From: Escherichia coli
GTDB taxonomy: Bacteria; Pseudomonadota; Gammaproteobacteria; Enterobacterales; Enterobacteriaceae
DNA length: 64,000 nucleotides
NCBI RefSeq assembly: GCF_003334355.1
Contig: NZ_QOWP01000006.1
Direction: 5' to 3' (one strand)
The notes below the pieces were generated by a model. That model saw only the letters and a list, made by a program, of their open reading frames with translations, made no database searches and was not told where the DNA came from. Below, piece by piece: positions 57,646 to 58,104 of this stretch. The first letter of the stretch is position 1, and each line of letters begins with the position of its first letter. Position numbers and translations under genes: made by a program.

Positions 57646-57657
57646 TCTGTAAATATT

Positions 57658-57700
57658 ATTTAGCTGTAGTAATCACTCGCCGTAATTATTACAGCTAAAT
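57658..57700 (+). terminator. Hairpin downstream of ampG (16 bp arms, one mismatch)
   Basis: ATTTAGCTGTAGTAAT ... ATTATTACAGCTAAAT inverted repeat 12 nt after the ampG stop; no strong U-run. Confidence 0.5.
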
Positions 57701-58104
57701 AAACATCAGCATCGCTTATTAATATTTGTTCTTTTGTGCGGCTTAGCGTTTGGAAATTATTGACGCCATTTATAAATTCTATTTTTCTTACACGATTCAG
57801 CTAATGAGTCTTTATTTTCTCATCACCCAGTTGTTACTCCAATGATAATTATTTGTTAAATAATTGTTTTATTTCGCATTGGTTATACCAATTGCCCGCC
57901 CAGACTCCTTCTGCACTCCCCTTTTGTTATAACGCCCTTTTGCAACAGCTTCTTAAAATTAACCTGATATGTTTTGCAACATATGCGACCTGACAGCCAA
58001 ATTCAAGTAACAGGAATTTAATCATGTTTACAGTAATGTAACCTTCCCGTAAAATGCCCACACACTTTAAACGCCACCAGATCCCGTGGAATTGAGGTCG
58101 TTAA

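Follow-up and report, generated by a model that had tools for sequence, protein, structure and literature searches.

The AT-rich ampG-cyoA intergenic region of Escherichia coli: cyoABCDE control region and probable ampG 3' end

In the 64,000-nucleotide stretch of Escherichia coli DNA analysed here (the window), ampG ends with a TAA stop codon at 57643-57645 and cyoA starts with an ATG at 58105, leaving a gap of 459 bp (57646-58104, from open reading frame boundaries). The counterpart in K-12 MG1655 is also 459 bp long (451611-452069) and carries no annotated feature, and the closest strain is likewise without annotation there. Window positions were converted to K-12 coordinates as 509715 minus the window position (U00096.3) or with a constant of 508939 (U00096.2; checked by the exact mapping of a published site). 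GC content is 0.355 in the gap; it rises to 0.517 in the 2 kb of flanking coding sequence and is 0.443 in the pooled intergenic DNA of the window. Equally AT-rich 459-bp windows make up 0.14% of the 64 kb, and the sole other place is the acrB-tomB gap. By length it ranks second of the 51 gaps in the window (median, 137 bp), and it is tied for the most AT-rich. Twelve A/T runs of at least 8 lie within it; runs of at least 6 number 16, versus 11.5 in mononucleotide shuffles (a count reached by 4% of shuffles), and homopolymer runs are not enriched over shuffles, so the tracts mostly reflect base composition. An earlier note, made from the sequence alone, had described an AT-rich, ORF-free gap of about 460 bp with multiple A/T tracts. 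That description holds at 459 bp, 35.5% GC and no conserved open reading frame, and the tracts are indeed there (the 12 runs of at least 8), only slightly above what composition would give.

Of 5426 complete E. coli genomes, 5425 contained a match to a 901-bp piece over the gap, nearly all of them a single one located between ampG and cyoA; the piece was closest to strain MLI023K1 (99.8% identity). The window and the K-12 gap differ by 11 single bases, none of them from -58 to the ATG. A scan anchored on CyoA relatives gave 80 loci across Enterobacterales; at 75 of them, ampG is the next gene upstream and points the same way. Between the two genes, Enterobacterales usually have 390-500 bp at 32-46% GC, in every case far less GC-rich than the genes on either side. 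The long AT-rich gap, kept in 75 other Enterobacterales genomes, is thus an ancient, maintained feature and no product of chance. Segment identities were calculated as mean identity to E. coli over 24 Enterobacteriaceae species and reached 0.94 in the cyoA leader, 0.88 in the core promoter and 0.70 in a distal block holding ArcA and PdhR sites (57831-57895); cyoA four-fold synonymous sites gave 0.60, and the remaining gap gave 0.50-0.56, with short conserved islands.

Immediately downstream of ampG lies an AT-rich hairpin (57656-57702, plus strand; 11 nt past the stop codon), the 21-bp arms of which (57656-57676 and 57682-57702) form an inverted repeat, 90% complementary. The RNA fold was -23 kcal/mol (z = -6.06 versus dinucleotide shuffles), and in a sliding scan of both strands the hairpin was the only clearly structured spot in the gap; with it set aside, no 80-nt window on either strand went clearly beyond shuffles (lowest z = -2.8). 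It has homologues in 18 Enterobacteriaceae, with an inner stem that is conserved in sequence, one invariant G-U pair and 5 of 11 pairs in which both bases vary while pairing is preserved; one pair is U-A here, U-G in K-12 and C-G in Citrobacter. The functional strand is undecidable from covariation, with some A-to-G changes giving a plus-strand G-U and C/T variation elsewhere giving a minus-strand G-U. The hairpin occurs once per genome and is unannotated; membership in a repeat family was considered and rejected on its single copy per genome.

Like Rho-independent terminators, this hairpin is a stable stem-loop immediately past a stop codon. A scan of 57400-58300 for intrinsic terminators nevertheless returned 0 sites, and the hairpin itself did not pass: its stem is A/U-rich and is followed by ACATCAGC, with no U-tract. 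Term-seq (Adams et al. 2021, PMC7815308) recorded no 3' end at the hairpin in three growth conditions, though weak expression of ampG might mask one. In Serratia, Rahnella, Pectobacterium, Photorhabdus, Hafnia and others, the equivalent position carries terminators made of a G+C-rich hairpin and a T-run, whereas Escherichia, Citrobacter, Salmonella, Klebsiella and Enterobacter have a long, conserved A/U-rich stem and no U-tract, unlike intrinsic terminators. Because classical terminators stand at the same spot in other families, the hairpin occupies the ampG terminator position. It is most likely the stem-loop at the ampG 3' end, and it could terminate transcription in an atypical way, block exonucleases or serve as a recognition site. 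Farther into the gap, positions 57890-57945 form a C-rich, G-poor tract (21 C, 7 G), from which we infer a possible Rho loading site.

At the other end of the gap, a sigma-70 core promoter (-35 TTTACA at 58027-58032, 17-bp spacer, -10 TAAAAT at 58050-58055; plus strand, 10 of 12 matches) was the sole promoter-like site that a consensus scan found on either strand of 57400-58300. A single hit does not exceed the shuffle expectation of 1.8, and the promoter is therefore supported by its conservation and by published site offsets. In 71 of 76 Enterobacterales gaps, the exact TTTACA-17-TAAAAT recurs at an equal distance to the ATG. Both published ArcA offsets (-38 to -7 and -231 to -189) yield the same position and thus place +1 at A58062, which sits 7 nt after the -10 element; the start was deduced from the offsets in Table S6 of Park et al. 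2013 and from the position of the -10 element, not from primary 5'-end data.

The 5' leader that follows from this start (58062-58104, plus strand, 43 nt) is the most conserved segment of the gap (94% mean identity, 24 species) and carries a GAGG Shine-Dalgarno sequence at 58094-58097, 7 nt ahead of the cyoA ATG. Its folding stability was ordinary, whether taken alone or extended by the first 20 or 85 nt of cyoA coding sequence (z = -0.75, -0.06 and -0.16 versus shuffles). Alternative leader helices were predicted in different families. A 4-bp stem, CCAC/GUGG, lies just upstream of the Shine-Dalgarno sequence and becomes GACAA/UUGUC in Erwiniaceae, Yersiniaceae, Pectobacteriaceae and others; in this stem, 82-94% of cells were paired versus 23-54% in slid controls. 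The change amounts to two compensatory pairs, yet it reflects a single split between clades, and the same sequences were used to derive the structure. GGA motifs at 58088 and 58115 flank the cyoA ribosome-binding site. In Salmonella, CsrA represses cyo translation 2.3-fold, and its CLIP-seq peaks lie on the gene.

ChIP-seq in K-12 identified three ArcA binding regions at cyo, and mutation of arcA derepressed cyoABCDE 64.9-fold (Park et al. 2013, PMC3798270). The proximal operator of three direct repeats, listed as 'cyoA1' in Table S4 of that study (ATTTTACGGGAAGGTTACATTACTGTAAACAT), was found exactly at 58024-58055 (-38 to -7) on the minus strand and overlaps both the -35 and the -10 elements. 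The distal operator ('cyoA3', Table S4), which lies under the strongest ArcA ChIP-seq peak (PMC3798270), was located at 57831-57873 (-231 to -189) on the plus strand and consists of four direct repeats with 11-bp spacing. Two bases differ from K-12 in this operator, and DR1 reads TGTTA here, closer to the consensus than the TGTCA of K-12. The distal operator is a conserved phylogenetic footprint and also contains weak Fur-like and IHF-like A/T-rich matches. Of seven window sites that fit TGTTA-N6-TGTTA with at most one mismatch, three fall in the gap (0.7% of the sequence), an enrichment, and overlap one another at 57832-57869. Between the two operators, the middle region (57922-57990, no strand assigned) holds the ArcA ChIP-seq peak 'cyoA2' (centre, ~57939; Park 2013 Tables S1 and S2, PMC3798270), at which no recognisable ArcA box was found.

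For PdhR, genomic SELEX lists the box AATTGGTataACCAATg for cyoA (PMC7660256), and the window site AATTGGTATAACCAATG at 57877-57893 (-185 to -169, no strand assigned) is identical to it. This site has 0 mismatches to ATTGGTNNNACCAAT (core palindrome, ATTGGT-N3-ACCAAT), is unique in the 64 kb and occurs unchanged in 14 of 36 Enterobacteriaceae gaps. Although PdhR is described as a repressor, its cyo box lies ~175 bp upstream of the start, next to the distal ArcA operator.

Cra regulation of cyoABCDE is stated in the literature, and a Cra-like site, GCTGAATCGTGTAAGA, was found at 57786-57801 (-276 to -261, minus strand). It agrees with the palindromic consensus GCTGAAWCGWTTCAGC at 13 of 16 positions (three mismatches), with a perfect left half, and as a palindrome it accounts for two of the eight equally good matches on both strands of the 64 kb. 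Of 36 Enterobacteriaceae, 33 retain the half-site CGATTCAGC, as do five Serratia. CpxR binding sites upstream of the cyoA start have likewise been reported in the literature. At 58017-58031 (-45 to -31, minus strand, overlapping the -35 region), GTAAACATGATTAAA is CpxR-like; read as GTAAAcatgaTTAAA, it has one mismatch to GTAAA-N5-GTAAA and is one of five such sites in the window. At the level of motif matching, 57786-57801 is a candidate Cra operator and 58017-58031 a candidate CpxR site. The HprR regulon also includes cyoABCDE according to the literature.

Other consensus scans of the gap returned background. The best FNR match (TTGAT-N4-ATCAA) had three mismatches, with 630 equally good in the window; the best CRP match (TGTGA-N6-TCACA) had three mismatches, with 340 equally good; and the best match to the 19-bp Fur box had seven, with 131 equally good. 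Scans for IHF, GadE and HprR gave nothing better than background, although the HprR and GadE consensus sequences used may be imperfect. Since the best FNR, CRP and Fur matches are no better than hundreds elsewhere, three of the five regulators named in the earlier note (ArcA, FNR, Fur, Cra and CRP) have no recognisable consensus site in the gap; ArcA sites and a conserved Cra-like motif are present, and the FNR, CRP and Fur matches stay at chance level. Genetic FNR dependence of cyo is cited in the literature, and effects of FNR, CRP and Fur may be indirect or exerted via degenerate sites. The broader expectation of a multi-input cyoABCDE promoter is borne out by documented ArcA ChIP-seq and PdhR SELEX data and by the literature on Cra, CpxR and HprR, together with matching sites.

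Several conserved blocks have no assigned factor. Footprinting over 25 Enterobacteriaceae marked TTGTTCTTTTGTGCG (57725-57741) and GGAAATTATT (57748-57762), at about -337 to -300 with no strand assigned; within the 36 Enterobacteriaceae gaps, TTTGTGC is present in 29 and GGAAATTAT in 18, and the blocks at 57725-57762 matched none of the consensus sequences tried. Phylogenetic footprints in the middle region include TTGTTATAAC (57924-57933) and TTGCAACATATGCGAC (57974-57989), and the direct repeat TTTTGCAACA occurs there twice, 34 bp apart (57922-57990). A further footprint spans 58006-58012.

The earlier note had also raised an unannotated 5' untranslated element or small RNA in the gap, which the data do not bear out. 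Rfam (E ≤ 10) returned only microRNA models, at 18-20 bits versus gathering thresholds of 58-130 (E = 1.6-5). The scan of 57400-58300 found no second promoter or terminator for an independent RNA, and Term-seq recorded no 3' end between K-12 positions 451530 and 452393 in three conditions (PMC7815308). The leader itself is 43 nt long and thermodynamically ordinary. Cappable-seq contains two very weak antisense start sites on the minus strand, at 58017 and 58008 (U00096.2 positions 450922 and 450931, K-12 plus strand), with scores of 1.96 and 1.63, respectively, versus 219 at a neighbouring promoter in the same table. Apart from these two, no independent transcript was seen among the Cappable-seq sites listed. 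Weak divergent initiation is common at A/T-rich promoters.

Within cyoA, Term-seq recorded an abundant 3' end at window position 58185/58187 (K-12 451528/451530) in all three conditions (PMC7815308). It lies 80-82 nt into the gene, just past a predicted hairpin, and is not Rho-dependent (Rho score, 0.43; PMC7815308); cyoA is absent from the main text of Adams et al. 2021 (PMC7815308). A start at 58062 and a 3' end at 58185/58187 together imply a 5' RNA of ~125 nt, which may be an ordinary decay intermediate. In having an abundant 3' end shortly past the start codon, cyoA resembles ChiZ, FtsO and 'ampG int' (PMC7815308). Unlike the small RNAs of that study, the cyoA 5' RNA has no Northern, Hfq or RIL-seq evidence in the sections of PMC7815308 used here.

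A rival reading places an independent small RNA in the gap or makes the cyo leader a riboswitch-like element or attenuator. The 94% identity of the leader, its mini-hairpin, in which two pairs changed in a compensatory way from family to family, the abundant 3' end seen under all three conditions 80-82 nt into cyoA, the CsrA effect on cyo in Salmonella and the two weak antisense starts all speak for such an RNA. They are outweighed by Rfam results at noise level, a scan without any terminator-like site in which the sole promoter-like site is that of cyoA, the lack of a 3' end in the gap, structure at shuffle level outside the ampG hairpin, compensatory changes that amount to one clade split and antisense scores of 1.6-2.0 versus 219; we therefore consider an RNA of this kind improbable. 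To our knowledge, 43 nt is too short for the known riboswitch classes. A related scheme, which we judge unlikely though less so, has the leader as a control module with a regulated ~125-nt 5' RNA and, separately, the ampG hairpin as a specific protein- or RNase-recognition element. Under that scheme, the module could consist of a small stem-loop, its loop a conserved AGAnCCC, situated just ahead of the Shine-Dalgarno sequence and recognised by CsrA, by Hfq with a small RNA or by another factor, and the ~125-nt RNA could arise from premature termination or processing or could act as a 5'-derived regulatory RNA.

It is possible, if doubtful, that only the promoter-proximal ~280 bp regulate cyo and that 57646-57830 (~190 bp) is ampG 3' untranslated region and spacer, with a length and AT-richness that serve no purpose for cyo: identity over 57703-57830 is 0.55, not above the synonymous 0.60, every mappable published bound site is at or downstream of 57831, and the hairpin stands where other families carry ampG terminators. 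Against a mere spacer, there are conserved blocks in this part (the Cra-like half-site in 33/36, TTTGTGC in 29/36 and GGAAATTAT in 18/36), and a gap length of ~390-500 bp is kept across families. Low GC (0.355), the ISApl1 element in the gap of one strain and the acrB-tomB gap, the only comparable one in the window, which a published promoter table marks as H-NS-associated, would fit horizontally acquired, H-NS-silenced DNA or a mobile-element remnant in place of a dedicated promoter region. Such an origin is highly improbable given that synteny, length and core promoter are conserved in 75 Enterobacterales genomes, that 5425 of 5426 E. coli genomes carry the region, that no repeat family is involved and that the insertion is exceptional, in a single strain. 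Moreover, cyo is a highly expressed aerobic operon and is not silenced. Least credible of all is a small protein encoded in the gap: open reading frames of 31, 46 and 44 amino acids do lie within it, but all of them have TTG or GTG starts with no upstream purine-rich, Shine-Dalgarno-like run, stop codons interrupt all three in Citrobacter and Salmonella, cross-species similarity tracks the DNA footprints and nothing is annotated in K-12 or the closest strain.

Very probably, then, the gap combines the 3' end of ampG (first ~60 bp) with a cis-regulatory region for cyoABCDE (~400 bp). The first ~60 bp would form the terminal part of the yajG-ampG transcript and bear the conserved AT-rich stem-loop in a presumed 3'-end role, and the remaining ~400 bp would control cyoABCDE, the cytochrome bo3 ubiquinol oxidase. 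The earlier note had assigned the whole gap to cyo control, which stands for the ~400 bp and fails for the first ~60 bp, where the ampG 3'-end hairpin lies. Sigma-70 RNA polymerase would use TTTACA-17-TAAAAT, starting at A58062 and giving a short 43-nt leader, probably with little structure, that carries a strong GAGG ribosome-binding site. Control of cyo output would act mainly through repression. At low oxygen, ArcA-P on the three-repeat operator would cover the -35 and -10 elements and probably occlude the promoter; ArcA-P would also occupy the four-repeat operator ~190 bp upstream and a weaker region between, perhaps with cooperation or looping among the sites. Further inputs would come from PdhR, the pyruvate sensor, at its palindrome (-185 to -169), from the Cra-like and CpxR-like sites and from HprR. 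Coordinates, motif matches with their rarity, and conservation were computed here; the K-12 literature supplied the binding of ArcA and PdhR as well as the 65-fold effect of ArcA.

The locus is the same as E. coli K-12 cyoAp, with 459 bp in both, and the published ArcA and PdhR sites are exact or have two mismatches in the window; the window hairpin has an A-U pair where the K-12 cyoAp region has G-U. Like cyo, the cydAB, sdhCDAB, icdA, nuo and pdhR-aceEF-lpd promoters have several ArcA-P regions per intergenic region, and cyo shares with other ArcA-repressed promoters a set of two to four direct repeats with 11-bp spacing, one of them over the core promoter. It differs from them in having three resolved regions over ~230 bp, the middle one without a recognisable box. 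cyo is repressed under conditions that activate cydAB. The promoter of ndh (NADH dehydrogenase II) shares with cyo the GntR-type ATTGGT-N3-ACCAAT and PdhR co-regulation (PMC7660256), and an ArcA site is predicted at ndh as well (PMC3798270). The PdhR box scores 13/14 at cyo versus 11/14 at ndh (scoring of PMC7660256) and is perfect on the 12-base core at cyo, where, unlike that of ndh, it lies far upstream (~-177).

The gap sets the amount of the main aerobic terminal oxidase that E. coli makes, integrating oxygen and redox state (ArcA), pyruvate (PdhR), carbon flux (Cra) and envelope and peroxide stress (CpxR, HprR). ArcA ChIP-seq, PdhR SELEX and studies of Cra, CpxR and HprR have already described the cyoABCDE control region in detail, and with knowledge at this textbook level, the finding adds nothing new in kind. 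Its practical value is a base-resolution site map in window coordinates, with a core promoter and leader that are nearly invariant across Enterobacterales. Small loose ends are the hyperconserved leader, the +80 3' end and the atypical ampG hairpin.

Mutations in the gap have been found in natural or selected strains, and one strain carries an ISApl1 insertion inside it; such changes are relevant to aminoglycoside tolerance and respiration.

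Between the window strain and K-12 MG1655, 11 positions differ in the 459-bp AT-rich ampG-cyoA gap, the control region of cyoABCDE (57646 to 58104), with none between -58 (relative to the deduced cyoA transcription start, A58062) and the cyoA ATG (58105). Two of these differences, at 57835 and 57840, lie in the distal ArcA operator (four repeats; 57831 to 57873), where repeat 1 reads TGTTA in the window strain versus TGTCA in K-12. In the hairpin just after the ampG stop (57656 to 57702), a U-G pair of K-12 is U-A in the window strain (57693). The same operator is interrupted in E. 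coli EC529, a chicken-meat isolate (NZ_AP039439.1), in which an ISApl1 transposase gene (IS30 family) lies between ampG and cyoA; the insertion point corresponds to about 57857 and splits the gap within the operator. A published account (PMC11952850) describes a further change between ampG and cyoA, a mutation in a biofilm-derived, gentamicin-resistant E. coli variant; this fits with altered cyo expression affecting aminoglycoside uptake.

The 56-nt untranslated stretch 3' of ampG at 57890 to 57945 is C-rich and G-poor, with 21 C, 7 G, and a GC skew of about -0.3. Its composition looks like that of a candidate Rho loading site, at which transcription running on from ampG could be halted ahead of the cyo promoter. 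Two copies of the direct repeat TTTTGCAACA are found 34 bp apart (57938 to 57947 and 57972 to 57981), both under the middle ArcA ChIP-seq peak (centre, about 57939), a peak without an ArcA box; the palindrome ATGTTTTGCAACAT contains the second of them. Two very weak Cappable-seq starts on the minus strand (58008 and 58017; scores, 1.63 and 1.96) are directed towards ampG and away from cyoA; divergent initiation at the A/T-rich cyo core promoter is their probable source.

Within cyoA, an abundant Term-seq 3' end (Adams et al. 2021, PMC7815308) maps to the plus strand at 58185 to 58187, 80 to 82 nt into the gene, with read counts of 32,054, 359,732, and 58,026 in three conditions, a Rho score of 0.43 (not Rho-dependent), and a terminator score of 1.05; cyoA is never named in the main text of that paper. 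A predicted hairpin (about 58151 to 58182) directly precedes this end, which, taken with the start at 58062, implies a 5' RNA of about 125 nt. Separate from the gap finding, the published ORF-internal small RNA "ampG int" ends inside ampG at a strong Term-seq 3' end (K-12 452393; window 57322, plus strand), about 320 nt before the gap begins; Northern blotting confirmed this RNA, and RIL-seq chimeras with CyaR were reported for it (Adams et al. 2021, PMC7815308).

Elsewhere in the window, the only stretch comparably long and AT-rich is the acrB-tomB gap (about 28440 to 29006; 545 bp; GC content, 0.378), marked as H-NS-associated in a published constitutive-promoter table. In an ungapped comparison with MLI023K1, the closest strain, the match was perfect over the part of the window beyond about 42 kb, whereas all sequence before a point at 40 to 42 kb was out of register. 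The break indicates an insertion or deletion between the window strain and MLI023K1 at about 40000 to 42000, near the decR-cof gap.
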